A stretch of 32,000 nt of DNA from Xanthomonas campestris pv. campestris str. ATCC 33913 (lineage in GTDB: Bacteria > Pseudomonadota > Gammaproteobacteria > Xanthomonadales > Xanthomonadaceae): the NCBI RefSeq assembly GCF_000007145.1, contig NC_003902.1, positions 1,207,436 to 1,239,435 on the forward strand. The letters run 5' to 3'. The position numbers and the translations under genes were made by a program. The notes under the pieces are model-generated. The model was not told where the DNA came from. It saw nothing but the letters and a program-made list of their open reading frames with translations, and searched no databases. Shown piece after piece: positions 8,776 to 26,069 of this stretch. The stretch's first letter is position 1. Each line of letters begins with the position of its first letter.

Positions 8776-8918
8776 AATGGCGTCACGGTGCATGGCATCT
8801 GTTTGCTACCCAGCGGATAGGTGCCAGCCCGTGACTTCCGCATTGACATCAGTGCGTGGTGTCTGCATTTGCCAATGACGATGGTGCTCGCCAAGATGGC
8901 CGCACTGCTACATGGACG

Positions 8919-9710
8919 ATGCCAATGCGTGTTGTTTCAACTGATCACTTTTCTGTGGCGCGTGTCGCGTGCAGCACCGCACGCGTCATTGCGCTTGTCT
9001 GCACGCTGACGTGTACAGCGGCCAGCGCACGCACTATTGCGCAGGTGCGCTACCCGCAGATCGCTGCACATGCTGCCGCCGTGGAAGGTCTGGTCCCTAC
9101 GGGGTGGCGGGTAGAGCAACGGCTGCAAGGTGACCTGGACCGCGACGGCCGTAACGATGTCGTGCTGGTATTGAAAATGACCGACGCGGCGAACGTGCTG
9201 CAGGTTGACGAGCGCACGCCCGAACCGCTGGACACCAACCCACGCATGCTCATTGCAGCGCTCATGGACCCGGCTGGTGGCTATCGTACGGTGACGCAGG
9301 ATCACGCCCTGATCCCACGCGGCGTCTCCACTGATCAGGATGAGTCTCTCGACGAGAGCGGCACCACCGGAGGCGGCGGCGTTGGTATCAACACAGCCGG
9401 TACGGTCACCGTCACCCTGAGCCAGTTTGCCTCGATGGGCTCCTGGCAAATGGGCGAGACCAGCTTCAATTTCCGCTACCAGGACGGCTGCCTGCGCCTG
9501 ATCGGCTACGAGCGCTCAACGGTACAGCGCAACACCGGCGAGACCAACGCGCTCAGCATCAACTACCTCACCGGCCGCGCCTGGCGCACGCAGGGCAGCG
9601 TCGACCACGACGGTGAGCCACCAAAGCGCTGGCTGCGGCTGCCCAAGCAGCCGTTGCAATGCCTGGAGCAGGTGGGCGATGGGTTGATGTTCAATCCGAA
9701 GATCGAGTAG
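8919..9710 (+). CDS. Hypothetical secreted protein
   Basis: The ORF has GC-rich third codon positions. N-terminal hydrophobic segment VIALVCTLTCTAASA, a GDLDRDGRNDVVLVL Asp-rich loop and a Gly-rich stretch. No family recognised. Start is uncertain (8856/8919/8925). Confidence 0.5.
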   Translation: MPMRVVSTDHFSVARVACSTARVIALVCTLTCTAASARTIAQVRYPQIAAHAAAVEGLVPTGWRVEQRLQGDLDRDGRNDVVLVLKMTDAANVLQVDERTPEPLDTNPRMLIAALMDPAGGYRTVTQDHALIPRGVSTDQDESLDESGTTGGGGVGINTAGTVTVTLSQFASMGSWQMGETSFNFRYQDGCLRLIGYERSTVQRNTGETNALSINYLTGRAWRTQGSVDHDGEPPKRWLRLPKQPLQCLEQVGDGLMFNPKIE

Positions 9711-9907
9711 TCCATGCGAACTACGTGGCCAGCCAAGGCATCGATAGACGCGTAGTACAGACCCTGCAGCGCTATCGCCCAGCTAGTTGCTGAGCGATAG
9801 CGTTACAAGCAGCGAGACGGAGTGCGATGTCCCCAACTGTCTGCGCCGGTGCTTACTGAAAGTGCTCGCTGTTGTCGGCAAGGGCCGAGCGGTCAATTCC
9901 CTGCGCC

Positions 9908-11233
9908 TCACCCGATGCGCATTGCCGAACCCTCACGCACCCGGTTGTCCATCTCCTGCTGCTGGCTTTGCACTAATGCCTGTTGGCGATCCGTGTTGGC
10001 AATTTCCAGCCGCTGCAGCGATTGCTCAACCGGCGTCTGCACCGCGACATCGGTCGGCATGTGAGCGCGCAGGTGCGCGGGGTTATTCAATTCGCCCTGT
10101 ACAACAAACACGTGACGCCCGGCGGGGCTGTCGGCTGTCTGTGTGCTCAGCACCACGTGATCGGCGCGGTCCAGGTTGTTCTGGCGGGCGAGGGTCATCA
10201 CGCTGGCGATGAGGCGCTCACTGTTCTCGTCCGGTGTGCGCCCGGCTTGCGCATCGATGGCGTTGACGCCTGCGCGGACCTGCTGCAGCAATGCATAGTC
10301 CCGGTGGCCAGGCCCAATATCGGCCAGTTGGGTGGGCGCCTGTTTCGGGTCTAGAACGCCATCGACCGACGCGGTTAACGGGCTGCGGGTGATGGAGCGG
10401 TGCGGGTCGTCCTCATGAAACTGCGTGGCTTTGTGCTGCCGTTCCATGCGGACGGCGCGGGTATCGTTGAGTTCGGCGATACGGCCGGGATTGGTCTCTT
10501 CGCGCATGGAAAGATGCCCGCCGCCTGCGCTGACATTCACCCATTTTTGCTCTTTTTCGAAGTACATCGCATAGAAGCTGTTGCTGCCGATCACATTGGG
10601 ATCGACCGCGGAGCGGCCTTCCAGCATCTGGATCGCGTCGGTCGTCCCCAGCTTTGCCAGGTACTGGCTGCCGTCCACCACCCCCATTTGCGCAAAGGTC
10701 TCGTAGCCCGTGTTGCTGATACGGGTGGTGCCGGCGTACTCGTTGTCGAGCATGTTGGTCCAGATCTGCTCCAGCTTCTGGGGGCCGCTTTTTTCCAATG
10801 CCGCTTGCAGAAGGACGCGAGGCGTCCAGCAGTTGGGGTCGAGCTCATGGTCCAGGAAGGCTTGGTCGTGCGCCAGCATGACGGAGGCCCCGGGCAGGTT
10901 CAGCGCCAGATCTGGACGATCTTGACGGAACCAGATTTTCCGAAGTTCAAGATCCTTCTTGAGCAGTGTCTGTCCAAAATCCTCCCACTGCCGCTCGCTC
11001 AAGTCCGCGTTGGCAAAACGAGAGCCAGTATCGTGCTGTGTCCTGGCATAGTCTTGCGCGTAACTGTTGGCCACTTGGCCGGGCAAGCTGTCGTTGCGCA
11101 CCACGCCCAGCGCCAGCGTACCGTAGCCGTCCGCGCCATCCAGCTGCGAAAGATAGTTCCAGTACAACTCGCGATTGCCTTTATCCGCGTAGTTGGTAAG
11201 GATCTTGAGATCTTGCCCAGTCAATCCACTCAT
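9908..11233 (-). CDS. Putative X-T4SS effector (X-Tfe): unknown N-terminal toxin domain plus C-terminal XVIPCD secretion domain
   Basis: 441 aa. The C-terminal 132 aa (9908-10306) read ..SERLIASVMTLARQNNLDRADHVVLS....VFVVQGELNNPAHLRAHMPTDVAVQTPVEQSLQRL followed by a Gln-rich tail. This fits the XVIPCD pattern and is clearly homologous to the tail of the 16317-17981 gene. GGGAG RBS. The gene starts 25 nt after a lipoprotein gene. Confidence 0.8.
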   Translation of the reverse strand: MSGLTGQDLKILTNYADKGNRELYWNYLSQLDGADGYGTLALGVVRNDSLPGQVANSYAQDYARTQHDTGSRFANADLSERQWEDFGQTLLKKDLELRKIWFRQDRPDLALNLPGASVMLAHDQAFLDHELDPNCWTPRVLLQAALEKSGPQKLEQIWTNMLDNEYAGTTRISNTGYETFAQMGVVDGSQYLAKLGTTDAIQMLEGRSAVDPNVIGSNSFYAMYFEKEQKWVNVSAGGGHLSMREETNPGRIAELNDTRAVRMERQHKATQFHEDDPHRSITRSPLTASVDGVLDPKQAPTQLADIGPGHRDYALLQQVRAGVNAIDAQAGRTPDENSERLIASVMTLARQNNLDRADHVVLSTQTADSPAGRHVFVVQGELNNPAHLRAHMPTDVAVQTPVEQSLQRLEIANTDRQQALVQSQQQEMDNRVREGSAMRIG

Positions 11234-11258
11234 ATTTTACTCCCTGTCAGTAGACCGA

Positions 11259-12122
11259 TCACCTGACTTTGGTGCGTGCCAGTACTTCTTTTACTGCATC
11301 CTCCATGCGTTTCCAGTCCTTCAAGAATGCACGCTTGTAGTTGAGAGTGATGGAAAGTTTGTTTTCGATATCGGAGAAGTAGTGGACGCAACTTGCAGCG
11401 ACGGCACCTTTTTCATGGACTACTTCAGATCCCTCCAGCCGAACGCCATCTCCTCGGAATTTTTTGCTGTCGCACTTGATGAATGTGGTCAAATTGCCGC
11501 TGGAGTCGCGCGCGACGTACCAGTCGTCCTCAAACGCAGGGTTGCGCGTTGGAGGCTTGCCGTAGTGGGCTTCGTACGCTTTAACGTACACCGCCATCTT
11601 TTCTTCATCGATGGCATACGGCGTCAATCCGAGTGTTTCAGGCTGTGCAATACGCAGATCGAGTCTGTCGACGGGATCACCCCGTTCGACAGAATCAGGC
11701 TCGGTAAGCGCTTCGTTAGACGAATAACGTGCCAGCAATCCTTCGATGGGGACACGGTCAACATAATTCATCGAGGCATGGATCTCCTTGCGGAAATCAT
11801 TCGTGCGCGGGTTCGCCCGCGCACCGGGCGGGGTGGGGGTCATATCTGGCCACTCGATGACCAGCGTCACCACCTCGATGGACCACGGTGCGATCTGGCT
11901 ATCCAGATAGTTGGCGGGGATGCGGAAGGTGTTCGGCCCTAGCTTCACATCGACGGGAGCATCCGAATAGGTGTGCCCGTTGATGGTGCGGCCTGTGGTA
12001 ACGGTGCCTGACATGGGGGAAGTCCTTTTTTGTTCGGGTGATGGCGTCCGTGCACAGGCACTGCCGGTGACAGCGATGGCGAGTGCAAGGGCCAGGCACC
12101 GGCCGGATGACATCATGTGCAT
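11259..12122 (-). CDS. Putative cognate immunity lipoprotein (X-Tfi-like)
   Basis: 287 aa. Lipoprotein signal MHMMSSGRCLALALAIAVTGSA-C. It lies immediately upstream of the XVIPCD gene on the same strand and looks visibly lower in GC than its neighbours. Confidence 0.65.
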   Translation of the reverse strand: MHMMSSGRCLALALAIAVTGSACARTPSPEQKRTSPMSGTVTTGRTINGHTYSDAPVDVKLGPNTFRIPANYLDSQIAPWSIEVVTLVIEWPDMTPTPPGARANPRTNDFRKEIHASMNYVDRVPIEGLLARYSSNEALTEPDSVERGDPVDRLDLRIAQPETLGLTPYAIDEEKMAVYVKAYEAHYGKPPTRNPAFEDDWYVARDSSGNLTTFIKCDSKKFRGDGVRLEGSEVVHEKGAVAASCVHYFSDIENKLSITLNYKRAFLKDWKRMEDAVKEVLARTKVR

Positions 12123-12380
12123 TGGTCAATCCATTGCAGGGTTCGCCGCAACTATAGGCAACTTGGGATCAGCGCGACAGCAAGGGCCAAGCCTGCGATT
12201 GTCCGTGCCATGCGCCGCACGACATGGGAATGCGATCACGCTCTGCCGGAAGGAAAGGCGCGTGGATCAAAACGCGGGCGGTGCAACGGCCGCTCGCCAC
12301 GTGTGCCGAAGAAGGACGTTTGCCGCCCTTGATCGCACTAAGTGTCGAGCTGCAGCGTGGTCAACGCAGACGTCGCCGCG

Positions 12381-13094
12381 TCATGCTCCAAACGCGCCAT
12401 CGATCGTATGCATTGCGCCGGTGACAAAGCTCGCTTCCGGGCCTGCCAGCCATGCCACCATGCCGGCCACTTCGTCGGCACGGCCGTGGCGTTTGATCGC
12501 CATGAAGCTGTGCATCAGGTCTTTCATCGGCCCGTTTTCCGGGTTGGCATCGGTATCGATCGGGCCCGGTTGCACCACGTTGATGGTGATGCCACGCGGC
12601 CCGAAGTCGCGGGCCAGCCCGCGCGCCAGCCCTTGCAGCGCGGATTTGCTCAGCGCGTAGGACGCCATGCCGGGCAGCGGCATGCGGTCGCCGTTGACCG
12701 AGCCGATCACGATGATCCGCCCGCCGGGCGGCATCTGCCGCGCGGCCTCCACGGCGGCGTGGTAGGGCGCGTGCACGTTGATGCGCAACAGCCGGTCCAC
12801 CGCGTCCGGATCCTGGTCCAGCGCATCGCCGAACAAGGCGATGCCGGAGTTGACCACCAGCACATCCAGCGGCCCGCTGCGGCGCACCGTTTCGATGACC
12901 GCATCGCGGTCGGCACTGTCGGCCAGCACCGCGGTGCTGCCGGTGTCGCTGGCCAGGCGCTGCGCCGCCTCGACAGAGCCGGCATAGGTAAACGTCACCC
13001 GCGCGCCCTCGCTCACGAAGCGCCGCACGATGGCGGCCCCAATCCCCCGGCTGCCACCGAGCACCAATACCGACTTGTCTTTGAACGCTGACAT
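12381..13094 (-). CDS. SDR-family NAD(P)-dependent oxidoreductase
   Basis: VLVLGGSRGIGAA Rossmann motif, NSG, and a catalytic YALSK (YxxxK). ATG 13094 gives the canonical N-terminus MSAFKDKSVLVLGG. Confidence 0.9.
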   Translation of the reverse strand: MSAFKDKSVLVLGGSRGIGAAIVRRFVSEGARVTFTYAGSVEAAQRLASDTGSTAVLADSADRDAVIETVRRSGPLDVLVVNSGIALFGDALDQDPDAVDRLLRINVHAPYHAAVEAARQMPPGGRIIVIGSVNGDRMPLPGMASYALSKSALQGLARGLARDFGPRGITINVVQPGPIDTDANPENGPMKDLMHSFMAIKRHGRADEVAGMVAWLAGPEASFVTGAMHTIDGAFGA

Positions 13095-13755: not shown

Positions 13756-14241
13756 ACAGGGTGCGAGCGGGCAGAGGGCTTTCGATGGCGTGCGCGCACC
13801 TGCTCGCTAATCGAGGTGCGCTTGCCGCTACTCAGTACGGTCAATGGTCAGGTGGTACGAGACGATCGTGATTGGCCGTCGCTCAGGCGAAGTCGTTGTC
13901 GGATGATTGGTGCGGTAAATCAGGAAGGGACGGGGCAGCGCCTGTGGGACATCCATGTTCTAGGCTGGCTTTAACACAGGCCACTTCAACCTCCTTGTGC
14001 AATGCTGGTGAGCACATGGAGCCGCGCGCAGCGTGTTGTTTAAACGTTTCAAACTATCCGAATTGCTGCTCACCCCGGACAGTCGCGCTGAGTCCATACC
14101 AGATGGTGTCGTTGCGGGATGCAGCGTCTATTTCGGTCCCGCAATGGGAGCGCCGCTGAACCATTTTCGTCTGCGATCAGTCACTTGACCGAGCCTACTC
14201 ATACGGCCACAGTCCGGGACGTTCGCCCTCTTCGTTCAAGG

Positions 14242-15165
14242 ATGCCCGTGAAGAAGCTGACCCATTGCATCGTGGCGACCGCGCTGGTGCCCATCATGAC
14301 GCTTGGGTGTGCACGGCTTTCGATGGAAAAGGCTGCCGCAAAACCCCCAAGTGGTGCACAAGAAGCATCGTTTTTTCCTCAGGCGCCTGCTGCCACGCCT
14401 TCGCCTTGGGTGCCCTTCAAGCTGGAACGGCAGATGGGTGCGGTCTGTGTGGATCGTATGCAATCACAGGGTTCCTCGCCTGCACCATTGCTAAGGGACG
14501 GGTTTTGCAAAGGCCCGGCGCCTGCGCATATAGCGCGCGCATTGCTTGCCCTGCCTGCAAGTGCGGTTGACGCCTCGCCGCGAGCGCGCGAAGCGAGCCT
14601 GCGCGATGCCGTGTATGTGGCCGCACCCGGCTTGGGACGGCGCGCGGACTTCACCGTGGTTGCGGGTGATCTGACGATCCGTTCGTTTGAGAGTGCTGAG
14701 CCTGACAAAACGGTGTACGTGGTTTGGTCGGTGAAATGCGGTCCGGGCGAAGCTGGCCTCGCGTGTCAGTCAGGCAAAGGCCGCAAAGCCTATCGCCTCG
14801 GTAAGGACGGCACCGCACATGACGTCAGTGCATTGGTGTTCCCGCCGGTGCCCAGCCTGAGCGCTCAAGACATTGCCAGGCAAAACGACCACGGCGGCTC
14901 GGAGCTTTTTCTGTTCGACGACAAGCTACCTGTGGCGTCGACAATGCGATGGCTGATGGAATTTGATCCCGACCAGCCACTGGCCACCGATGACCCGAAG
15001 CGCGTCGGGTCTTACGCCCATTTTGGTTTTCTTCGGTGGACAGGCGAACGCTTCGAGCTGGTAGAGCGAGTCCCTAGAGCGCAGTGGCCATGTCGTCAGC
15101 AACGCACAGGCCAACCCGCGTGCTCGGATTATCCCGATGGTGAGGACCGTTTCGTTTCGAGGTAA
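14242..15165 (+). CDS. Periplasmic lipoprotein, paralogue A (putative X-Tfi immunity protein)
   Basis: Lipobox IMTLG-C after MPVKKLTHCIVATALVP. AAGGA RBS. Homologous along its whole length to the next gene, with six conserved Cys. Confidence 0.7.
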   Translation: MPVKKLTHCIVATALVPIMTLGCARLSMEKAAAKPPSGAQEASFFPQAPAATPSPWVPFKLERQMGAVCVDRMQSQGSSPAPLLRDGFCKGPAPAHIARALLALPASAVDASPRAREASLRDAVYVAAPGLGRRADFTVVAGDLTIRSFESAEPDKTVYVVWSVKCGPGEAGLACQSGKGRKAYRLGKDGTAHDVSALVFPPVPSLSAQDIARQNDHGGSELFLFDDKLPVASTMRWLMEFDPDQPLATDDPKRVGSYAHFGFLRWTGERFELVERVPRAQWPCRQQRTGQPACSDYPDGEDRFVSR

Positions 15166-15329
15166 ATGCAGTGGCAACACGGATTACCATGCTGTTAGGT
15201 GCGGCATGAGGTGAAAGGCTCGCGCACGAGTCACTAGACCAGAACTGTAAGCAGTGCGACGCAGAGCAATGACGTGTTTTGGTAAAAATTACGTAGATCT
15301 TGGGCTACCCCATTCAGACGGAGCAGAGC

Positions 15330-16247
15330 ATGCGTCATCGCCATTTAAACGGACTGGTTGTGGGTGCCGTGTTCATCGCTGCAGCTGGATGCGCCCAAGA
15401 CAGCGCGCGCTCGGCAAACCGTACCTCTACGGCAGCACCCGCCTCCGAGCATGCCTACCCAGCAGTGCCATCGTCTTCTCCAAAGCCTTGGAAGCGCTTC
15501 GCGCTGGAGCAAGGCATGGGGGCAACGTGTTCAACCCGGTCGCAGCGAACCTCTTCTGGCCGCAGCGCCCTGCTGCCGGCTGACGAATGTATCGGCCCTG
15601 CGCCGCGTCCCCTTGCCAAAGTCATTTTGTCGCTTACACCGTCTGATCTTGGGCTTTCAGTTGAAGCACGGGGCGAGGCCTTGAAGCATGCCGTTTACGT
15701 TGCGTCACCTGGCTTGGGTGAGCGCGCGGACTTCTTGTTGGCGAGCGATAAATTCTGGGTGCGCTCATTCGAATCGCATGATCCGCTTCAAACCGTTTAT
15801 CTGGTCGGCGGTGTGAGCTGTACCGATCAGGCATTGAACTGCAAAGATTCGCGTGGAGTACGCGGGTTCCGGTTTGAGGGGAAAGATCGGCTTGTGGATG
15901 TCAGTAAGAACGTATTGCCAGCGGCGCCTACATTGTCCGAAGACGACGTGCGTCGCTATCAAGCCTATGCGGAGCCGGTTCCCTCTCTGGATGTTTCGCG
16001 TCTGTGGCAGGTTCCCGTGTTGCGCTGGGTCATCGAATTCGACCCGGATGCGCCGTTGGCCGGTGACCCGCGCTATTACAACGATTGGGCGTATCTACAT
16101 TTCGGGTTTCTGGTATGGAACGGAAAGCGCTTCGATTTGATGGATAAGGTTGATCGCTCACGTTGGCCGTGTAGGCCCGTCGCTGAAGGAACGGCGGCCT
16201 GTTCTGGCCCGCTGGATAACAGGGGCGATCGTTTCGTCACTCCTTAG
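15330..16247 (+). CDS. Periplasmic lipoprotein, paralogue B (putative X-Tfi immunity protein)
   Basis: Lipobox AAAG-C after MRHRHLNGLVVGAVFI. GGAG RBS. Blocks shared with paralogue A: AVYVA.PGLG.RADF, RSFES..P..TVY, RW..EFDPD.PLA, HFGFL.W.G.RF.L...V.R..WPCR and DRFV. Confidence 0.7.
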   Translation: MRHRHLNGLVVGAVFIAAAGCAQDSARSANRTSTAAPASEHAYPAVPSSSPKPWKRFALEQGMGATCSTRSQRTSSGRSALLPADECIGPAPRPLAKVILSLTPSDLGLSVEARGEALKHAVYVASPGLGERADFLLASDKFWVRSFESHDPLQTVYLVGGVSCTDQALNCKDSRGVRGFRFEGKDRLVDVSKNVLPAAPTLSEDDVRRYQAYAEPVPSLDVSRLWQVPVLRWVIEFDPDAPLAGDPRYYNDWAYLHFGFLVWNGKRFDLMDKVDRSRWPCRPVAEGTAACSGPLDNRGDRFVTP

Positions 16248-16316: not shown

Positions 16317-17981
16317 ATGGCTCGGGTCATAGAGTTCAATATCAAAGAGCGTGCGGATGAAGTGGTGGTGTTGTTCAATGCGAACCGTCCAGCAGACGCG
16401 GTGGCATTGCTGGAACAACACCGCCAGGGACAGCCTGAGGTCGTGCGAGAAAGCATGGACCGTTATGTCGGCAGCCAGGCAGAGCGCGGCATCGCCAGCG
16501 GTGCTGAAGGCCCGCAGACACCCTCCGTAGCAGCAGGGCTACAGCGCCTACAAGGCATCCCAACAACTCCACCGAGATTTCCAGCCGAAGCGGAGATGGC
16601 GGTTCTTTCCGACCGGCAGAAGTACGACGTCTACGCAAGTATCGCCCAGGCTCGCGGCAACACGGCCGCGGATCAATCGCTGGCCACGCCAGGGCAACGG
16701 GTCATCTTGGGGTTGCGCCAAGAAAACTCCACGCTCGACGCCATGGTAGATTCGGCTCATCCAACGCAACGAGCGGCAGATAACCCGGCAACTGCGCGTG
16801 ACGAATCGCGTGGCGGCAGTGGCGTCTACAACGACCGCTTGGTCGTCTTGTGGAAGGATGCTGACGGCACCCCGCACGTGGTGGAATCCAATCGCGCCAA
16901 TACAGAGCCCACCGCGCAATACGACCATCACGCCGGCAATACGGGAGCGAGGCCGCTGGGCGAGGGCGGCCGCGAGAATCGACGATTCGATCCTTCCCCT
17001 GGGTTTGAAAGCATTACGCGGCCCCGCAAGATCGAAGGTGACGACGTCAATGCAGACGGCGTTCGAGATCTTGGACGTCTGCATGACGGCACGATCGAAA
17101 TGCAGAGGGCGCAGCATCCCAATCCTTTGCTGGCCGGAACCCTGGACGACGCGCTGAGGCCCAGTCAGGCTGCGGTCACCGCAGGGCGCGAGATGGTGCA
17201 GCGAGACAGCAATGCCGATGGTTGGTTCGATTAGACCGATGTCAACGGTACGCAGGATCTCAACGACACGTTCAAGATCCATCGCGGATCACGTGGAAGT
17301 ACGGATTCCGCCGGTTGCCAGACGATCCACGCGGACGACTACGACGCGTTCATGGATGCTGTTCAAGGCAACCCCGCACAAACGCGCTGGCAATACGTGC
17401 TGACCAGCACCACGCCCGGGCCGGTGCGGGAGCAGCAACGGGACCAAGGGCGAGGGAATGAAGGGGCACAGCCAGGGCAGGAGGAGCGGGGGCATCCGCC
17501 GGCCCAGCCGCAGCGGCAGAACGGCGGGCCTGCAGCGCCTGTGCCTGGGAGGCCACGACAGGCAGACGCAGAAGACGCCCAACCCGCGCCTCACCCGTTG
17601 CATGCGCAGGCCAGCACCTTGGTCGGCCGGCTGGACGCCAGCATGGGCCGCGCCAGCGATGCGCACAGCGAGCGGATGAGCGCCAGCCTTGCGCACTTGG
17701 CAAAGGAGCATGGGCTTGAGCGGATTGATCACGTAATGCTGAGCAACCAAACATCGCGTGCAGCGGCCGGTGCCACCGTGTTCGTGGTACAGGGCGAACC
17801 CAGCAACCCGGCCCATCTGCGCGCCAGCATGCCCACCGATCTGGCTGTCACTACGCCGGTGGAGCAGTCGCTGGCAAAGCTGCAGGAGCTAGATGCGCGT
17901 ACCTTGGCGCAAGCGCAGAGTCAGGCGCAGGAAAGAGCGGTGGCTCAGGAAGAGGCGGTCAAGCCCCGGAGTATTGGGTGA
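16317..17981 (+). pseudogene. XVIPCD-tailed X-T4SS effector gene interrupted by one in-frame TAG (17232-17234)
   Basis: ORFs 16317-17234 and 17352-17981 are in the same frame. Reading through the single TAG gives a continuous 553-codon product. The C-terminal 129 aa (17592-17981) are an XVIPCD homologous to the 9908-10306 tail, preceded by a Pro/Gln/Gly-rich linker. Confidence 0.75.
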
Positions 17982-18108: not shown

Positions 18109-18639
18109 GTGGAATTGAAGCCCCAGGATCTGGTGGTGCTGTACAAGCAAGTCGCCCAGGCGAACCAAACCTGGACCTATGCCTCGCTGGGAGAAGCGCT
18201 GGGCATGAGCGCCTCTCAGGTGCATCGCAGCGTCAAGCGCGCGGTGGCATCTGGTTTGGCTCTTGAAAAAAGCCGGGGCGAGTGGGAGACGGTGCGCACG
18301 GCTTTGCACGAGTTTGCGGTCCACGGCGTGCGCTATGCCTTTCCTGCCGTCATCGGGCCGCTAAAGCGCGGCATTCCGACCTCCTTTGGCGCGCCTCCTC
18401 TGTCCATTGCCATTTCCAGCGCCCCAGGGGACGCACCGGTATGGCCAAGCGCGCAGGGCACGTCCAAAGGGCCTAGCTTGTCGCCGTTGTCAGCCGGTGT
18501 GCCCACTGCTGCGATGGCCGACCCTGCCTTGCATGCGCTGCTGGCGCTGCAGGATGCCCTGCGCAGCGGGCGTGCCCGCGAGCGCGCGCTGGCAGCAAGC
18601 TATCTCAAGCAATTGCTGGGGATTGGTGATGCGGCCTGA
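18109..18639 (+). CDS. Winged-helix/HTH protein, AbiEi-like antitoxin/regulator candidate
   Basis: 176 aa, GTG start. The N-terminal TYASLGEALGMSASQVHRSVKRAVASGL is HTH-like. The 3' end overlaps the next gene by 11 nt. Confidence 0.55.
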   Translation: MELKPQDLVVLYKQVAQANQTWTYASLGEALGMSASQVHRSVKRAVASGLALEKSRGEWETVRTALHEFAVHGVRYAFPAVIGPLKRGIPTSFGAPPLSIAISSAPGDAPVWPSAQGTSKGPSLSPLSAGVPTAAMADPALHALLALQDALRSGRARERALAASYLKQLLGIGDAA

Positions 18640-19315
18640 TGATCCTAATCTGCCGCATCTGCTTGTGATTGCGGATGCATTGGGCGAGCTTCGCGAACAC
18701 GTAGTCTTTCTTGGCGGGGCAGTGGTTGGCCTGCTGGTGTCGGATCCATTGGCTGAAAACGTCCGCGCCACCTATGACGTCGATGCGGTGGTCAATCTTG
18801 ATTGGTCTCGGTTTCGCGGTATTGAGGCGCGTGTGGAATCGCAGGGCTTCGCGCGCGAGATGCAGAGCGGCGTCGTCTGCCGCTGGGTACACAAAGCATC
18901 GGGCTTCATCTTCGACTTGATGCCAGTGGATGAAGGCGTGCTTGGATTCTCCAACCGCTGGTACGCCCATGCTGTAGAGACGGCCCAAGTGGTGGCCTTG
19001 AGCGATCGCCTGTCCATCCGTTTGGTGACAGCGACAGCATTCGTGGCGACCAAGCTCGAAGCCTTCGTTACCCGAGGCAACAGTGACTTCCTTTCCAGTC
19101 ACGACCTAGAGGACGTCCTCAATGTCGTCGATGGCCGGGCCGAGCTGGTGGAAGAGCTTGCCGTGGAGCATGCAGACCTTCGGCATTGGGTTGCCGACGT
19201 GTTTTTGGGGCTAGTCGATAACCCGACGTTTGTGAATGCGTTGCCGGGATTGGTCGCCGAACCGGAGCGCGCAAGCGTCGTGCTTCAGCGCCTACGCACC
19301 ATTGCATCAGCGTAG
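18629..19315 (+). CDS. Pol-beta-fold nucleotidyltransferase, AbiEii-like toxin candidate
   Basis: 228 aa from ATG 18629. FLGGAVVGLL..NVRATYDVDAVV (GG..R.T.DxD), FIFDLMPV (second acidic motif) and ATKLEAF (K..A) match the NTase motif order described for AbiEii/DUF1814-type toxins. Confidence 0.6.
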   Translation: MRPDDPNLPHLLVIADALGELREHVVFLGGAVVGLLVSDPLAENVRATYDVDAVVNLDWSRFRGIEARVESQGFAREMQSGVVCRWVHKASGFIFDLMPVDEGVLGFSNRWYAHAVETAQVVALSDRLSIRLVTATAFVATKLEAFVTRGNSDFLSSHDLEDVLNVVDGRAELVEELAVEHADLRHWVADVFLGLVDNPTFVNALPGLVAEPERASVVLQRLRTIASA

Positions 19316-19370
19316 CTGCGACACCGTCGGCTTAGGTCTGCAAACAAAACCTTGAAGCACCGGCGCCCGC

Positions 19371-19393
19371 TTGCGATCATGCATCGCAATTGC
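19371..19393. promoter_or_regulatory. Overlapping inverted repeats upstream of the ParD-like gene (possible operator)
   Basis: TTGCGAT-catgc-ATCGCAA (19371-19389) overlaps the palindrome GCAATTGC (19386-19393), about 20 nt before ATG 19411. Confidence 0.4.
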
Positions 19394-19410
19394 AACGCAC
19401 TGGGCCGGCC

Positions 19411-19674
19411 ATGAAATCCGCATCACTTCCATCGCTCCGGGTAGACCCGGCGCTGCGCGAAGCGGCCGAAGCCGTGTTGCAGGAGGGTGAGACGCTTTCC
19501 AGCTTTGTCGAGCACTCCGTGCGTGCCCAGGTGCAGCAGCGCCAGCAGCAGGAAGCCTTCATTGCCCGTGGGCTGGCTTCGCGTGACAGCGCCAAGGCAT
19601 CCAACCGGTACATCGAGGCGAAGGATGTGCTGGCCGGGCTGCAGTCCCAACTGGACAAGGCGCGCAAGGGCTGA
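19411..19674 (+). CDS. RHH-type antitoxin, ParD/CopG-like
   Basis: 87 aa. The N-terminal beta-strand/helix pattern SLRVDPALREAAEAVLQEGETLSSFVEHSV fits a ribbon-helix-helix. It lies directly upstream of a ParE/RelE-like gene. Confidence 0.6.
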   Translation: MKSASLPSLRVDPALREAAEAVLQEGETLSSFVEHSVRAQVQQRQQQEAFIARGLASRDSAKASNRYIEAKDVLAGLQSQLDKARKG

Positions 19675-19680
19675 GCCAGC

Positions 19681-19989
19681 GTGGGATATTCCGTCCGCTT
19701 CACTCAGTACGCGCGCAACGATCTCGCGCGTCTTTACGACTGGCTGCTACAGCGTGCCGAAAGCGGCTTCACCGTGGTCGAGCGCGCGCTGCAGGCCATC
19801 CGCGACGGCGTCACCGTGCTGGCACTTGCCCCGTTGAGCTGCCGCAAGGCGGTGCCGGCAGACCCGTTCTTGCGGGAGTTGGTGATCGGCTTCGGTGCCA
19901 GCGGCTATGTGCTGCTGTTTGAGGTTGAAAGCAATCAGGTCGTCACCGTTTTGGCAGTCAGGCATCAGCGTGAAGACGACTATCATTGA
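19681..19989 (+). CDS. ParE/RelE-family toxin
   Basis: 102 aa, GTG start 6 nt after the antitoxin stop. Y..A..DL..LYDWL.. followed by LRELVIGFGASGYVLLFEVESNQVVTVLAVRHQRE is the typical ParE/RelE C-terminal beta-sheet. Confidence 0.75.
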   Translation: MGYSVRFTQYARNDLARLYDWLLQRAESGFTVVERALQAIRDGVTVLALAPLSCRKAVPADPFLRELVIGFGASGYVLLFEVESNQVVTVLAVRHQREDDYH

Positions 19990-20026
19990 GTTAGGCACCT
20001 GCGTCCACCTCTTGGCGTGAGAGTCG

Positions 20027-23000
20027 ATGCCCGGGCAGGGCCAAAATCAGGGGTTAAAGATAGTGAGTGACCAGTTTTTCAAGCAGCCTATTCTCAATTC
20101 TCCATACGGTTACCCGTCTTTGCACTGGGAGCTCGACGAAAAGGGGCAACCTACACAGCAAGTAGTCAAATCTCGCCGAGCATCCAGCTTCGTTAGTCCG
20201 ATTCCAAAGCCACGTCGGCACCAGGGCGAGCAGGCTACCCTGGCGCTGGATGAAGTTGAGAGCCTGGCTGACGACGGGCAGCGCTACCGACACTCTGAGC
20301 TAATCAATTCGGTGCGGCGGGAGGTCGATGCTTGGCGTCTCTTGCCACCTGCGCAGTGGCGCGTCACCCCTGAAACAGCCCGCTTACTGGAACATTGGCG
20401 CAACCACAAGTTCGCCGGTGTGCGCCCATTCTTTTGCCAAGTAGAAGCGGCCGAGACCGCCATCTGGTTGGCCGAGGTCGCTCCACAGCTTGGAAAGAAC
20501 GGCGAGCGCTTCCTCGATCACCTGAAAAAGGCCAGCACTGATGCCAATCCCGGCTTGATGCGTTTGGCGCTGAAGCTGGCGACTGGTGCAGGCAAGACCA
20601 CGGTCATGGCCATGCTCATTGCCTGGCAGACGGTTAATGCCGTACGGCATCCGCAGAGCAAGAAATTCACCCGTGGTTTCTTGCTGGTCGCTCCTGGCCT
20701 GACCATCAAGGATCGTTTGCGTGTGCTATTGCCCAATGATGCAGACAGCTACTACGCCAACCGCGAAATCGTGCCACGCGACATGCTGGCCGATTTGGAC
20801 AAGGCCAAGATCGTTATCACCAATTACCACGCTTTCAAGCGACGTGAACGCATGGAGCTGTCCAAGGGCGGCCGCCGCCTGTTGCAAGGCCGTACCGGCA
20901 GCGAGCTGGAAACGCTGGAAACCGAGGGACAGATGCTCCAGCGAGTCATGCCGGAATTGATGGGGCTGAAGAATATTCTTGCCATCAACGACGAGGCACA
21001 CCATTGCTATCGGGAGAAGCCGCACGCTGCCGTAGACGATGAAGATCTCGATAAAGATCAGAAAGCGGAAGCCGAGGACAACAATGAAGCCGCTCGGCTT
21101 TGGATTTCTGGCCTAGAAGCGGTCAACCGCAAGCTGGGGCTGCAGCAGGTGATGGACCTGTCTGCAACGCCTTTCTTCCTGGCCGGCTCTGGCTATGTGG
21201 AGGGCACGCTCTTTCCGTGGACGATGAGCGATTTCTCGCTGATGGACGCTATCGAATGCGGCATCGTCAAGTTGCCGCGCGTGCCGGTCGCCGACAACAT
21301 TCCCGGTGCGGAAATGCCCATCTATCGTGAGCTCTGGAAGCACATAGGCAAGAAGATGCCGAAGAAGGGGCGCGGCAAAAACGCCCAGCTCGATCCATTG
21401 GCCATCCCGGTGGAATTGCAGACCGCACTGGAAGCTCTGTACGGCCACTACCTCAAAACCTACGAAGCTTGGAAGCAGGCAGGCATCAACGTTCCGCCAT
21501 GCTTCATTGTGGTGTGCAACAACACCGCAACTTCCAAACTGGTGTTCGATTACATCTCCGGCTTCGAGCGCACGAATGAGGATGGCTCCAGCACGCGTGT
21601 GCCAGGCCGGTTGGAGCTGTTCCGCAACTTCGACGAACATGGCGAGCCGCTGGCGCGCCCAAACACCTTGCTGATCGACAGCGAGCAACTCGAATCTGGC
21701 GAGGCGCTGGACGATAACTTCCGGGGGATGGCCGCCGACGAGATCGAACGCTTCAAGCGCGAGATCATCGAGCGCACCGGCGATCGCGGCCAGGCTGAGA
21801 ACCTGAGTGACAGCGAATTGCTGCGAGAGGTAATGAACACCGTGGGCAAGCAGGGCCGCTTGGGCGAACAAATTCGCTGCGTGGTGTCGGTGTCCATGCT
21901 CACGGAAGGTTGGGATGCCAATACCGTTACCCACATCCTCGGGGTGCGTGCGTTCGGCACCCAACTGCTGTGCGAGCAGGTGATTGGCCGTGCCCTGCGT
22001 CGTCAGTCCTATGAATTGAACGAACAAGGCCTCTTTGACGTGGAGTACGCCGACGTATTCGGCATCCCCTTCGACTTCACAGCCAAACCAGTCGTCGTCA
22101 CGCCGCCCAAGCCCCGCGAAACCATCACAGTCAAGGCACTGCGCCCGGAACGCGATCATCTGGAAATCTGGTTCCCGCGCGTGCAGGGCTATCGCGTCGA
22201 GCTGCCAGAAGAACAACTCGAAGCTGAATTCAACGACGACCACCACGTCAGCCTGACGCCCGACAGGGTTGGTGCGACCAAGACCCACAACGCCGGCATC
22301 ATTGGCGAGGCAGTGGAGCTGGATATCAAGCATCTGGGAGACGTGCGCCAGTCCACCCTGCTGATGGAGTTGACCAAGCATCTGCTGTTCCAGCATTGGC
22401 GTGATAAAGGCCAGGATGCACCGATTGCATTGTTTGGTCAGCTCAAGCGCATCGTGCGCCAGTGGCTGGACGAGTGCCTGGAGTGCAAGGGCGGCACGTA
22501 TCCGGCGCAGTTGATGTACCGCGAACTGGCGGACATGGCCTGCCAGCGCATCACCAAGGGTATTACCGCGAAGGAACTGGAAAAGGGCCGGCAGGTCAAA
22601 GCCATCCTCGACCCATTCAACCCGACCGGCAGCACCGCGCACGTGCGTTTCAACACTTCGCGTCCGGGCAGTGAACGCTGGGAAACCCTCGGTGTAGAGA
22701 ACCAGCCGAAAAACCAGGTCAACTGGGTGATTCTGGACAGCGGCTGGGAAGGCGAATTCTGTCGCATCGCCGAATCGCATCCCAAGGTGCTGGCCTACAC
22801 CAAGAACCACAACCTCGGCCTGGAAGTACCCTACCGCTTTGGCTCGGCCAACCGCATCTACATACCTGACTTCATCGTTCAAGTGGACGATGGTCGCGGC
22901 AAGAACGATTCACTGAATCTGATCGTCGAGATCAAGGGCTACCGGCGCGAAGATGCGAAGGAGAAGAAGTCCACCATGGACACCTACTGGATTCCTGGCG

Positions 23001-23149
23001 TGAACCACCTCGGCACACACGGTCGCTGGGCCTTCGTCGAGTTTGGTGACGTTTACGAAATGCAGGATGACTTCGCCAAAGAGGTCGAGGCGAAGTTCAA
23101 CCAAATGATTGAAACGGCTGTGCCCGCGCCGGGAAACAAGGAATACTGA
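20027..23149 (+). CDS. Type III restriction Res-like subunit: SF2 DEAH helicase with a C-terminal PD-(D/E)xK nuclease
   Basis: Walker A TGAGKTT (20582-20602), DEAH (20990-21001), motif VI QVIGRALRR, and a C-terminal IPDF..(20 aa)..VEIKG nuclease-like motif. The alternative GTG start at 20063 gives MSDQFFKQPILNSPY. Confidence 0.85.
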   Translation: MPGQGQNQGLKIVSDQFFKQPILNSPYGYPSLHWELDEKGQPTQQVVKSRRASSFVSPIPKPRRHQGEQATLALDEVESLADDGQRYRHSELINSVRREVDAWRLLPPAQWRVTPETARLLEHWRNHKFAGVRPFFCQVEAAETAIWLAEVAPQLGKNGERFLDHLKKASTDANPGLMRLALKLATGAGKTTVMAMLIAWQTVNAVRHPQSKKFTRGFLLVAPGLTIKDRLRVLLPNDADSYYANREIVPRDMLADLDKAKIVITNYHAFKRRERMELSKGGRRLLQGRTGSELETLETEGQMLQRVMPELMGLKNILAINDEAHHCYREKPHAAVDDEDLDKDQKAEAEDNNEAARLWISGLEAVNRKLGLQQVMDLSATPFFLAGSGYVEGTLFPWTMSDFSLMDAIECGIVKLPRVPVADNIPGAEMPIYRELWKHIGKKMPKKGRGKNAQLDPLAIPVELQTALEALYGHYLKTYEAWKQAGINVPPCFIVVCNNTATSKLVFDYISGFERTNEDGSSTRVPGRLELFRNFDEHGEPLARPNTLLIDSEQLESGEALDDNFRGMAADEIERFKREIIERTGDRGQAENLSDSELLREVMNTVGKQGRLGEQIRCVVSVSMLTEGWDANTVTHILGVRAFGTQLLCEQVIGRALRRQSYELNEQGLFDVEYADVFGIPFDFTAKPVVVTPPKPRETITVKALRPERDHLEIWFPRVQGYRVELPEEQLEAEFNDDHHVSLTPDRVGATKTHNAGIIGEAVELDIKHLGDVRQSTLLMELTKHLLFQHWRDKGQDAPIALFGQLKRIVRQWLDECLECKGGTYPAQLMYRELADMACQRITKGITAKELEKGRQVKAILDPFNPTGSTAHVRFNTSRPGSERWETLGVENQPKNQVNWVILDSGWEGEFCRIAESHPKVLAYTKNHNLGLEVPYRFGSANRIYIPDFIVQVDDGRGKNDSLNLIVEIKGYRREDAKEKKSTMDTYWIPGVNHLGTHGRWAFVEFGDVYEMQDDFAKEVEAKFNQMIETAVPAPGNKEY

Positions 23150-23150
23150 T

Positions 23151-26069
23151 ATGGCAACGAAGAAAACAGAGAAGCACGGCAAGAGTATCGAGCAGATCAC
23201 TCATACCGAGGCCAAACGCAAGAACATTCCGACGGTGGAGCATCAGTCGGTGATGCAGCATCACGAGCAAGCGCCGGTGCAGGTGGCCTACCCACGTGCC
23301 AACCGGCAATGGTTAGAGGAACTGTGCGCTTTGCATGACGCGGGAAAGGTCTCCCAGGAATTCCAGCAGCGACTTAACCGCGATCTTGACCCGCAACTCA
23401 TCTGGCGCGGCAAGGACCAGCAGGATTGGTCGGATCTGGTCGTCAACGCGCCGCCTCTCTACATCCAGGAAAAGGTCAAGCCCAAGGCGCTGATCGACGA
23501 CCTGCGCCGTCAGACCGACGCGCGCCGCGAAGCCGCCGCGCCGCAGCAGCAGGACATGCTGGATCTATTCGGCGACTTCAACGGCCTGCCCGAAGGCGCG
23601 GACCGCACCGAGTTCTACCAGCACGAGGGCCATTGGCAGAACCGTATGATCCTGGGCGATTCCTTGCAGGTGATGGCCAGCCTGGCCGAGCGCGAAGGGT
23701 TGCGCGGCAAGGTGCAGTGCATTTATTTCGATCCGCCGTATGGCATCAAATTCAACAGCAATTTCCAGTGGTCAACCACTAGCCGTGATGTGAAGGATGG
23801 CAATACCGGCCATATCACTCGCGAACCGGAGCAGGTTAAGGCGTTCAGGGATACCTGGCGCGACGGGATTCATTCGTATCTGACGTATTTGCGTGACCGA
23901 TTGATGGTGGCGCGGGATTTGTTGACGGAATCTGGGTCGATCTTTGTGCAGATTGGTGATGAGAACGTGCATCGCGTGCGGGCTGTGCTTGATGAAGTTT
24001 TTGGCGAAGATAACTTTGTCTCTATGATTCAGGTGCAAAAAACAGGTAGCCAAGCGTCAAATCTTTTGGCGAATACAGTTGACTTTGTTTTGTGGTATGC
24101 CCGCACAAAGAAAAAAGTCAAATATCGACAGCTTTACTCGGACCGCACTGCAGGGCATGTTTCTTCCGATCGCTACGATCAAATCGAACTTGACGACGGC
24201 GAAGAACGTCGGCTTAAGCGTGATGAATTGGATAGAAAGGTTGAAATTCCGCCAGGCCGAATTTTTCGGCAAACTAGCCTAATATCATCTGGTCAAGCGT
24301 CAAGCGAACAAATCTTTGTTTTTCAGAACAAGCAATATCGTCCGGGTGCATCGAATCATTGGAAAACGACAGTCAGTGGTCTTGGCGTTCTTGCAAAGGC
24401 AGGGCGTATTGCGGCAGGCGCGTCAACGGTGCACTACAAACGCTATCTTAATGACTTCTCCGTTTTGCCTATCGCAGATCGTTGGGAGTCGCTGCAAATC
24501 GGCACGGGCTTGATCTACGTTGTGCAAACCGCAACCTCAGTCGTAGAGAGGTGCCTGTTGATGGCATCCGACCCTGGCGATCTAGTGCTCGACCCTACCT
24601 GCGGCTCCGGTACCACCGCCTATGTTGCCGAACAATGGGGACGCCGGTGGGTGACCATCGACACAAGTCGCGTCGCGTTAGCACTGGCCCGCGCGCGGAT
24701 AATGGGAGCGCGCTACCCGTATTATCTACTGGCCGATTCCCGCGAAGGTCAATTGAAGGAGGGCGAGATTACCCGCTGCGCGCCCTCCAGCCAGCCCGCC
24801 TGGGGTAACATTGTCCACGGCTTCGTCTATGAACGCGTGCCACACATCACGCTCAAATCCATCGCCAACAACGCCGAGATTGAAGTCATCTGGGACAAGT
24901 TCCGGACTACGCTGGAGTCGCTGCGCGAAAAGCTGAGCCATGCACTCGGCAAGCAGTGGAAGGAGTGGGAGATTCCGCGCGAAGCCGATGCAAAATGGAG
25001 CCATACCGCGAAAGAGTTGCATGCCGACTGGTGGCAGCAACGAGTCGCCTGCCAAAAGGAAATTGACGCCTCGATCGCGGCCAAGGCCGAGTTCGAGTAC
25101 CTCTACGACAAACCCTACGGGGACAAGAAGAAGGTGCGAGTGGCGGGCCCCTTCACGGTTGAATCGCTTAGTCCGCACCGCGTATTGGGCGTGGACGAGG
25201 AAGACAACCTGATTGACCATGTGGCCGAGACCCAAGCCGAATACGGTCAGGACTTTGCCAGCCTGATCCTGGCCAACCTGCGCACCGCCGGTGTGCAGCA
25301 GGCACGCAAGGCCGACAAGATCGAATTCACCTCACTAGAGCCGTGGCCGGGCGAACTGGTCTGCGCCGAAGGCCGCTACCTCGAAAATGGACAGGTGAAG
25401 CGTGCCGGCATCCTAGTTGGTCCGGAATTTGGCACGGTCACCCGCGCTGACCTAGTTGATGCCGCCCGCGAAGCGGGTGATGCCAACTTCGATGTACTAA
25501 TTGCCTGCGCCTTTAACTACGACGCTCCTGCCAGCGAGTTCAGTAAGCTGGGCCGCATCAATGTACTCAAAGCGCGCATGAATGCCGAGCTACACATGGC
25601 CGAAGACCTGAAGAACACCGGCAAGGGCAATCTGTTCGTGATCTTCGGCGAGCCGGATGTGGACGTGCTGGACACACAGGGTCACAGCATCCGCCGATAC
25701 GATGGCAAGCGTGACGTTATCGAGGTACCTGCCGACGGGCAACTGGTGGTGCGCATCAACGGCGTGGATGTATTCCATCCCAGCACCGGTGAAGTGCGTA
25801 GCGACGGTGCAGACGGCATCGCCTGCTGGTTTTTGGATACCGACTACAACGAGGAATCCTTCTTCGTCCGCCATGCCTACTTCCTCGGCGCGAACGACCC
25901 GTACAAGGCTCTGAAGACTACCCTCAAAGCTGAAATCGACCCCGACGCCTGGGCAACGCTCAACTGCGACACCTCGCGCCCTTTCCCGAAACCGAGTAAC
26001 GGTCGGTTTGCGGTGAAGGTCATCAATCACCTCGGTGATGAGGTGATGAAGGTATTTAAGGTGAACTGA
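23151..26069 (+). CDS. Beta-class (motif IV before motif I) N6-adenine-type DNA methyltransferase, 972 aa, Mod-like with a long C-terminal extension
   Basis: DPPY at 23730-23741 and DPTCGSGTT at 24591-24617. AAGGAA RBS. ATG lies 1 nt after the Res stop. About 440 aa follow motif I. Confidence 0.9.
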   Translation: MATKKTEKHGKSIEQITHTEAKRKNIPTVEHQSVMQHHEQAPVQVAYPRANRQWLEELCALHDAGKVSQEFQQRLNRDLDPQLIWRGKDQQDWSDLVVNAPPLYIQEKVKPKALIDDLRRQTDARREAAAPQQQDMLDLFGDFNGLPEGADRTEFYQHEGHWQNRMILGDSLQVMASLAEREGLRGKVQCIYFDPPYGIKFNSNFQWSTTSRDVKDGNTGHITREPEQVKAFRDTWRDGIHSYLTYLRDRLMVARDLLTESGSIFVQIGDENVHRVRAVLDEVFGEDNFVSMIQVQKTGSQASNLLANTVDFVLWYARTKKKVKYRQLYSDRTAGHVSSDRYDQIELDDGEERRLKRDELDRKVEIPPGRIFRQTSLISSGQASSEQIFVFQNKQYRPGASNHWKTTVSGLGVLAKAGRIAAGASTVHYKRYLNDFSVLPIADRWESLQIGTGLIYVVQTATSVVERCLLMASDPGDLVLDPTCGSGTTAYVAEQWGRRWVTIDTSRVALALARARIMGARYPYYLLADSREGQLKEGEITRCAPSSQPAWGNIVHGFVYERVPHITLKSIANNAEIEVIWDKFRTTLESLREKLSHALGKQWKEWEIPREADAKWSHTAKELHADWWQQRVACQKEIDASIAAKAEFEYLYDKPYGDKKKVRVAGPFTVESLSPHRVLGVDEEDNLIDHVAETQAEYGQDFASLILANLRTAGVQQARKADKIEFTSLEPWPGELVCAEGRYLENGQVKRAGILVGPEFGTVTRADLVDAAREAGDANFDVLIACAFNYDAPASEFSKLGRINVLKARMNAELHMAEDLKNTGKGNLFVIFGEPDVDVLDTQGHSIRRYDGKRDVIEVPADGQLVVRINGVDVFHPSTGEVRSDGADGIACWFLDTDYNEESFFVRHAYFLGANDPYKALKTTLKAEIDPDAWATLNCDTSRPFPKPSNGRFAVKVINHLGDEVMKVFKVN

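Follow-up and report, generated by a model that had tools for sequence, protein, structure and literature searches.

Smlt3024 and Smlt3025 of Stenotrophomonas maltophilia K279a are the closest described relatives of the gene pair analysed here. Secretion of Smlt3024 by S. maltophilia depends on a type IV secretion system (T4SS) and on cell contact (Bayer-Santos et al. 2019, PMC6759196). The same study reported that Smlt3024 slows the growth of Escherichia coli only if it is targeted to the periplasm or introduced by the T4SS of Xanthomonas citri, and that Smlt3025, like its Xcc counterpart below a predicted lipoprotein, neutralises it. The crystal structure of Smlt3025 (6PDK) has a topology that resembles that of the Neisseria lipoprotein FrpD, and the N-domain of Smlt3024 is homologous to the N-termini of RTX proteins, its mechanism having been left open (PMC6759196). 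More recently, VirD4 was found to be bound by Smlt3024 in a two-hybrid assay (2024 study, PMC11253643). A literature search on Smlt3024, the XVIPCD secretion-signal domain and FrpC/FrpD yielded no later paper assigning an activity. Here, we describe an immunity-effector pair encoded in a 32-kb stretch of DNA (the window, 32,000 nucleotides) from Xanthomonas campestris pv. campestris (Xcc) strain ATCC 33913 (NC_003902.1, positions 1,207,436 to 1,239,435), and we propose that it very probably represents the Xcc orthologues of Smlt3025 and Smlt3024, with the same identity and the same general mode of action as this S. maltophilia pair of the bacteria-killing T4SS (X-T4SS).

An initial annotation of the window, made by reading the sequence, had described a 441-aa open reading frame (ORF) with a lipoprotein gene upstream of it. 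Both ORFs are indeed found on the minus strand, at 9908..11233 (441 aa) and 11259..12122 (287 aa), and the upstream product carries a lipobox with Cys23. We favour orthology with the S. maltophilia pair because both proteins pass the NCBIfam equivalog cutoffs, and because of the XVIPCD match, the matches to 6PDK and 9p3h, the conserved gene pairing and the lipobox. The effector scores 851.8 bits against NF050128 (Smlt3024 family type IV secretion system effector; curated cutoff 800 bits), with aa 1-434 aligned to positions 1-434 of the 436 in the model. The lipoprotein scores 548.2 bits against NF050129 (Smlt3025 family type IV secretion system inhibitor; curated cutoff 500 bits) over positions 1-287 of 287, and its residues 41-285 align with the sequence of the Smlt3025 structure 6PDK (E 8e-129). 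Its N-terminus is hydrophobic, with the strongest 15-residue hydrophobic stretch beginning at aa 9, and a PROSITE-type lipobox, ALAIAVTGSAC, is located at aa 13-23. The effector aligns over its full length with 9p3h (E 3e-118 in the sequence search and 1.7e-165 in the profile search), an unpublished structure of S. maltophilia K279a CAQ44090.1 deposited as a 'conserved hypothetical protein', for which no paper was found in a literature search.

The two genes also keep the same order elsewhere. An immunity homologue lies directly upstream of the effector gene, on the same strand, in 76 of 78 related loci that were fetched, and both exceptions are short contigs. The paired loci span Xanthomonas, Stenotrophomonas, Lysobacter, Luteimonas and others, with an immunity-effector spacing of about 20-60 bp in most of them; in the window, the immunity gene lies 25 nt upstream on the same strand. 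The assignment of the lipoprotein as the cognate immunity protein is thus borne out by the NF050129 match, by this pairing and by the neutralisation of Smlt3024 by its orthologue Smlt3025 (PMC6759196). Further immunity-like copies are present nearby in 13 of the 78 loci. Such extra immunity copies are usual in polymorphic toxin systems. Effector and immunity identities are correlated across the related loci (r = 0.96); we set this value aside as evidence for co-evolution, since it mostly mirrors shared phylogeny.

The C-terminal part of the effector had been proposed to be an XVIPCD, and hence to mark an X-T4SS substrate, on the basis of a few sequence hallmarks. Of these, SERL is present, VFVVQGELNNPAHLRAHMPTDVAVQTPVEQS fits the proposed pattern exactly, and the Gln-rich tail is likewise there (6 of 31 residues, 19%), whereas the motif given as 'GL.R.DHVVLS' reads NLDRADHVVLS in the protein. 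The profile search that had been named beforehand as a test of this proposal places an XVIPCD at aa 308-410 (Pfam PF20410, X-Tfes_XVIPCD; E 1.5e-29, 103 bits against a cutoff of 24.9). In sequence searches of the PDB, the C-terminus matches the nuclear magnetic resonance structure of the XAC2609 XVIPCD (7mu9) and TfcB (7r6s), and a Foldseek search with the full-length effector model also recovers 7mu9 (TMt 0.63). No signal-peptide-like segment was found in the effector.

This pair is not new. Curated family names are already assigned to it on Xcc genomes and the founding S. maltophilia pair was characterised in 2019. For the 441-aa effector, there are exact Xcc matches with the annotation XVIPCD domain-containing or Smlt3024 family effector, and it is about 70% identical to the S. 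maltophilia family members; exact Xcc matches to the 287-aa lipoprotein bear the name 'Smlt3025 family type IV secretion system inhibitor'. In ATCC 33913, the effector gene corresponds to XCC1056, for which the database gene model starts 43 codons late (398 aa). Most of the checks suggested for the Xcc pair in the initial annotation had already been done on the orthologue, namely a comparison of toxicity in the periplasm and the cytoplasm and rescue by the lipoprotein (PMC6759196), as well as the interaction with VirD4 (PMC11253643). The view that the toxin acts from the periplasm agrees with what was shown for Smlt3024 in E. coli (PMC6759196) and, by orthology, would hold for the Xcc protein. 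The features of the pair are as follows.

11259..12122, minus strand: gene for the X-T4SS immunity (X-Tfi) lipoprotein, Smlt3025 family, 287 aa (NF050129 and 6PDK matches)
12054..12122, minus strand: signal peptide and lipobox of the immunity protein, aa 1-23, with predicted lipidated Cys23 (PROSITE-type lipobox)
11234..11258, minus strand: 25-nt intergenic spacer of the bicistronic arrangement (read directly from the sequence)
11240..11244, minus strand: ribosome-binding site GGGAG, 6 nt ahead of the effector ATG (read directly from the sequence)
9908..11233, minus strand: gene for the X-T4SS effector (X-Tfe), Smlt3024 family, 441 aa (NF050128)
10424..11233, minus strand: toxin domain, aa 1-270 (AlphaFold2 model)
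10313..10423, minus strand: low-confidence, probably flexible linker, aa 271-307 (drop in model confidence, secondary structure absent after aa 268)
10004..10312, minus strand: XVIPCD secretion signal, a VirD4-binding domain, aa 308-410 (Pfam PF20410)
9911..10003, minus strand: Gln-rich C-terminal tail, aa 411-441 (Gln count; low-confidence helix in the full-length model)

The remaining part of the effector, its N-terminal toxin domain, had been described in the initial annotation as a region of about 250 aa without a recognisable match, and the N-terminal strings quoted there are present in the protein. We found no Pfam match for this region, and sequence and profile searches of the PDB gave 9p3h as the sole match apart from XVIPCD entries and noise from the Gln-rich tail. 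A first AlphaFold run with the full-length effector and 23 close homologues reached a predicted local distance difference test (pLDDT) score of 64, and the XVIPCD structures were the sole Foldseek matches of this model. It was superseded by an AlphaFold2 run of the N-domain on a 51-sequence alignment, which gave a model with a pLDDT of 90.3 and a predicted template modelling score (pTM) of 0.88. In this model, the N-domain is built from eleven helices, one of them 40 residues long (aa 166-205), together with a sheet of four strands (aa 214-245), and ends in a helix at aa 249-268, beyond which the linker is disordered. Model confidence declines in the linker: in the N-domain model, the pLDDT drops to 60 at aa 281-290 and to less than 50 at aa 287-300, and the full-length model likewise scores less than 50 at aa 281-299. 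The folded domain would accordingly comprise about 270 rather than 250 aa. The Foldseek check that had been suggested for the N-domain returned no neighbour in the PDB (best E 0.42, TM <= 0.23) or in the viral library BFVD (best E 0.65), and 9p3h is absent from the PDB matches of both the full-length and the N-domain model. Likewise, no likeness to a lysozyme or glycoside hydrolase, amidase, lipase, nuclease, HExxH peptidase or colicin-type pore was detected by Pfam, PDB profile or Foldseek PDB and BFVD searches. The description of a domain without a known family or fold therefore stands, except for its size and for the uncharacterised 9p3h, which matches in sequence.

To what extent the domain is conserved was assessed in 66 sequences, the most distant of them 21% identical, with RTX-linked and DUF6861-linked relatives among them. 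G52, D94, R98 and W136 are invariant in this set, and R21, Y24, Y37, N56, H122, F126, T137, W158 and W231 are conserved in at least 95% of the sequences; the effector in the window carries all of these family-conserved residues. We tentatively suggest, as a possibility somewhat short of an even chance, that R21, Y24, Y37, N56, D94, R98, H122, W136, W158 and W231 make up the active site of an enzyme or a ligand site. A catalytic or small-ligand site is favoured because these residues stay fixed whether the carrier is an XVIPCD protein, an RTX-repeat protein or a DUF6861-type protein. Alternatively, as speculated by the authors of the 2019 study, the toxin could work without enzymatic activity, by binding an essential periplasmic or signalling component stoichiometrically and so sequestering or blocking it. 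This would fit the growth arrest without lysis seen with Smlt3024 (PMC6759196) and the mostly helical fold, which lacks likeness to any enzyme fold, and the homologous RTX context extends to FrpC, which binds FrpD strongly through its N-terminal region (PMC6759196). We nevertheless regard a stoichiometric binder as rather doubtful. Asp, Arg, His, Asn and Trp residues that remain invariant to 21% identity and across delivery systems are more typical of a catalytic or small-ligand site, a binding interface would co-evolve with varied prey, and the number of injected molecules would be small for the titration of an abundant target.

Some periplasmic effectors of type VI secretion systems depolarise the membrane without lysis. 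By the same logic, the domain could form a pore or ion channel, inserting into the inner membrane from the periplasm and dissipating the membrane potential, which would lead to stasis rather than lysis. The largely alpha-helical fold with its 40-residue helix would be in line with such an activity, as would the non-lytic phenotype of the orthologue and its dependence on a periplasmic location (PMC6759196). A pore former is quite improbable, however, as the effector lacks a helical hairpin of hydrophobic character (its 15-residue Kyte-Doolittle mean peaks at 1.0), a Foldseek search with the model retrieved neither colicin-type nor other pore-forming domains, and the conserved residues are polar or aromatic and do not form a hydrophobic face. 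We thus rank an enzyme or small-ligand binder first and a stoichiometric inhibitor second, with a pore former as the least likely of the three.

The toxin domain belongs to a family of modest size. With aa 1-300 of the effector as the query, 403 clusters were retrieved at 90% identity; at 50% identity, there were 212 in a library of 1.84 billion representatives. The family is seen mainly in Xanthomonas, Stenotrophomonas, Pseudoxanthomonas, Lysobacter and Luteimonas. Among the homologues scanned, three long ones contain RTX repeats (P0208, P0292 and P0311), with the toxin domain at their N-terminus, and in another relative, P0246, the domain is located C-terminal to a DUF6861 region. These sequences indicate that the toxin module is used in several delivery contexts. 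Several database records of XCC1056 and its relatives bear the label 'hemolysin'. This label, together with the remote N-domain homologues located at the N-terminus of RTX-repeat proteins, might be taken as a sign of a haemolysin or RTX cytolysin with eukaryotic cells as its target. For the effector in the window, we consider such a function hardly credible: it has no RTX nonapeptide repeats (PF00353), XVIPCD being its only Pfam match, it carries a T4SS signal and not a type I secretion system (T1SS) signal, and the tested orthologue acts on bacteria (PMC6759196). We rejected the label for the Xcc effector, given that no RTX repeats are found by Pfam; it appears to be misleading and inherited from RTX-linked relatives.

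In accordance with the work on S. maltophilia, the following sequence of events can be proposed. The effector would be made in the cytoplasm without a signal peptide, and its C-terminal XVIPCD would dock on the VirD4 coupling protein. The bacteria-killing VirB/VirD4 T4SS would then inject it on contact into a rival Gram-negative cell, where it is expected to act from the periplasmic side and to slow or stop growth without lysis. The product of the upstream gene would be exported by the Sec and Lol pathways as a lipoprotein with an FrpD-like, eight-stranded antiparallel beta-sheet fold, reside in the periplasm of the producer and neutralise the toxin, most likely by binding it directly. In the favoured reading, a catalytic or small-ligand site built from the conserved residues would act on a conserved component of the cell envelope. 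For the Xcc proteins, we infer from the orthologue that the effector binds VirD4, is secreted and is toxic in the periplasm, and that the lipoprotein rescues from it; immunity by direct binding and an enzymatic nature of the toxin are likewise our interpretation.

Several points weigh against this reading. The experimental work was done on the S. maltophilia orthologue, to whose family members the Xcc effector is only about 70% identical, and the published phenotype is mild, consisting of slower growth of E. coli. The conserved residues could also be structural or make up a protein-binding surface. There are no virB or virD4 genes in the window. Xcc B100, 8004 and ATCC 33913 are listed as X-T4SS carriers, and the virB loci of 8004 and ATCC 33913 are reported to be fragmented (PMC6536674), so that delivery in this strain is uncertain. 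In addition, a 209-aa form of the effector occurs on 137 contigs; it is identical for aa 1-198, continues with RRPPALSSGLV followed by a stop, and falls into the same 90% cluster. Effector calls of 198 aa labelled 'partial' end at the point where the 209-aa form diverges. Many Xcc genomes may hence carry an effector gene broken at codon 198 by an insertion or a frameshift, and such disrupted alleles may suggest that the effector is dispensable. Intact copies identical to the effector in the window are found on 33 contigs, and immunity sequences are widespread in Xcc. The effector arsenal may thus be decaying in parts of the species, with the copy in the window being intact.

One might go further and regard the cassette as a stranded remnant, whose effector is no longer delivered owing to a fragmented or absent T4SS and which is kept mainly for immunity against attack by relatives. 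The lack of T4SS genes in the window, the fragmented virB loci (PMC6536674), the truncated form together with the wide occurrence of immunity sequences, a nonsense codon in a neighbouring second XVIPCD gene and the orphan immunity-like extra copies in 13 related loci would all fit. On the other hand, the effector ORF in the window is intact over its full length, keeps all conserved residues and is preceded by a good ribosome-binding site, identical intact copies exist on 33 contigs, and Xcc strains are still counted as X-T4SS carriers in a review (PMC6536674). We therefore judge it unlikely that the cassette is such a remnant and retain the reading of an immunity-effector pair orthologous to Smlt3025/Smlt3024.

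With regard to expression of the pair, a scan of 9600..12450 detected no sigma-70 promoter, and the count of terminator-like sites in the same interval was not above the shuffle expectation, with none downstream of the effector gene. The 258 bp upstream of the immunity gene (12123..12380), in which we looked for a gene coding for a helix-turn-helix (HTH) protein like smlt3026, contain no minus-strand ORF of at least 60 aa. Since neither an HTH ORF nor a recognisable sigma-70 promoter is present in 12123..12380, regulation of the Xcc operon may differ from that in K279a. The immunity gene has a GC content of 0.56 and a third-codon-position GC content (GC3) of 0.64, and the effector gene of 0.61 and 0.75, compared with a GC3 of 0.79-0.82 for the pepN-like and short-chain dehydrogenase/reductase (SDR) genes nearby. 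The lower GC content of the pair relative to its housekeeping neighbours is consistent with horizontal acquisition.

The pair is flanked on one side by hflK/hflC-like Band 7 genes, purA and a gene for a pepN-like aminopeptidase, and on the other side by genes for an SDR oxidoreductase and a TetR regulator. A convergent 284-aa ORF (8856..9710, plus strand), located immediately past the effector gene, gave no Pfam, NCBIfam or PADLOC match. A second X-T4SS effector gene is located at 16317..17981 on the plus strand and would encode a 554-aa XVIPCD protein; its joined sequence matches Pfam PF20410 with an E-value of 7e-27. It is split by a single in-frame TAG at 17232-17234 into ORFs of 305 and 209 aa, and intact 554-aa Xcc homologues (P0316) have Gln at that codon, presumably CAG. 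The N-terminal approximately 370 aa of this protein have no Pfam or PDB match. Just past the in-frame stop, it contains a 'IHRGSRGSTDSAGC' motif, which may recall the H...S.GC sites of L,D-transpeptidase-type enzymes. The second effector may belong to the XAC1164/XAC1165-Smlt0113 family named in PMC6536674. Directly upstream of it lie two paralogous ORFs (14119..15165 and 15300..16247, both plus strand; 37% identity, E 6e-65) whose N-termini resemble those of lipoproteins (…TLGCA… and …AAGCA…). Neither of them gave a Pfam, NCBIfam or PADLOC match, and the first is an exact match to XCC1059 of ATCC 33913. The two ORFs probably represent tandem immunity genes of the second effector. The stretch from about 14 to 28 kb is low in GC (0.53-0.60 as compared with about 0.66 in the flanks), and its part at 18386..28147 (plus strand) is a probable defence island. 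Its genes, all on the plus strand, code for a PADLOC PDC-M21B-like protein (18386..19315, E 4e-61), for a ResIII helicase of 1040 aa whose C-terminal region is endonuclease-like (20027..23149), for a Type III methyltransferase of full length (23109..26069, 1898 bits) and for a UvrD/GajB-like helicase (26069..28147).

The initial annotation had raised the prospect of a new antibacterial activity. This question has been recognised by the field since 2019 and is not a discovery of this window. What remains for the field is a widespread toxin domain, found on T4SS substrates and RTX proteins, without a known fold relative, target or chemistry. To this, our analysis adds a high-confidence model that has no neighbour in the PDB, a small set of strictly conserved residues and the delineation of a modest family (212 clusters at 50% identity), which is almost always paired with a lipoprotein. 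We speculate that the N-domain of about 270 aa is an enzyme of undescribed fold that attacks a conserved envelope molecule via D94, R98, H122, N56 and Trp residues, and that RTX 'hemolysins', possibly including FrpC/FrpD, are antibacterial weapons delivered by T1SS; this wider proposal has perhaps one chance in three or a little less of being right. If it is true, the logic of a toxin combined with an FrpD-like lipoprotein would also explain a set of RTX 'hemolysins', and Xcc would be a tractable second system, with natural disrupted alleles, for defining the activity.

The Xcc pair can be compared with several known systems. The peptidoglycan hydrolase XAC2609, the GH19-like TfcB (7r6s) and the nuclease TfdA have the XVIPCD and the logic of an upstream immunity gene in common with the Xcc effector; unlike the Xcc effector, they have toxin domains in recognisable enzyme families. 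X. citri XAC1165, which we had considered as an orthologue as a guess from gene numbering, proved to be wrong, as XAC1164/XAC1165 are in the Smlt0113 family (PMC6536674). The large RTX proteins delivered by T1SS (P0208, P0292 and P0311) resemble the Xcc effector in having the toxin domain at their N-terminus, and differ from it in their mode of delivery (RTX/T1SS as opposed to XVIPCD/T4SS) and in sequence (21-38% identity). Neisseria FrpC/FrpD is a proposed analogue, the likeness to FrpD having been seen in the Smlt3025 structure; that FrpC has an antibacterial role was put forward as a hypothesis in the 2019 study (PMC6759196). 9p3h is a solved full-length homologue with the same architecture as the Xcc effector; it belongs to a paralogous branch, and the representative of its cluster at 50% identity shares 47% identity with the Xcc N-domain. 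As the sequence of 9p3h is 49% identical to a 440-aa Smlt3024-family protein of S. maltophilia, we suggest, because of the 48% figure given in PMC6759196, that it is most likely the paralogue Smlt0500 of the 2019 paper. The closest counterpart is Smlt3024/Smlt3025 of S. maltophilia K279a. The Xcc host is a plant pathogen and its effector is about 70% identical to the S. maltophilia members; the Xcc pair is not located beside virB/virD4 and sits between the pepN-like gene and the SDR/TetR pair, and the small HTH gene smlt3026, found upstream in the K279a operon, is absent from the Xcc window. Both pairs share the gene order and the protein lengths (441 and 440 aa for the effectors, each with a 287-aa lipoprotein), and both effectors combine an unknown N-domain, a linker, an XVIPCD and a Gln-rich tail in the same layout.

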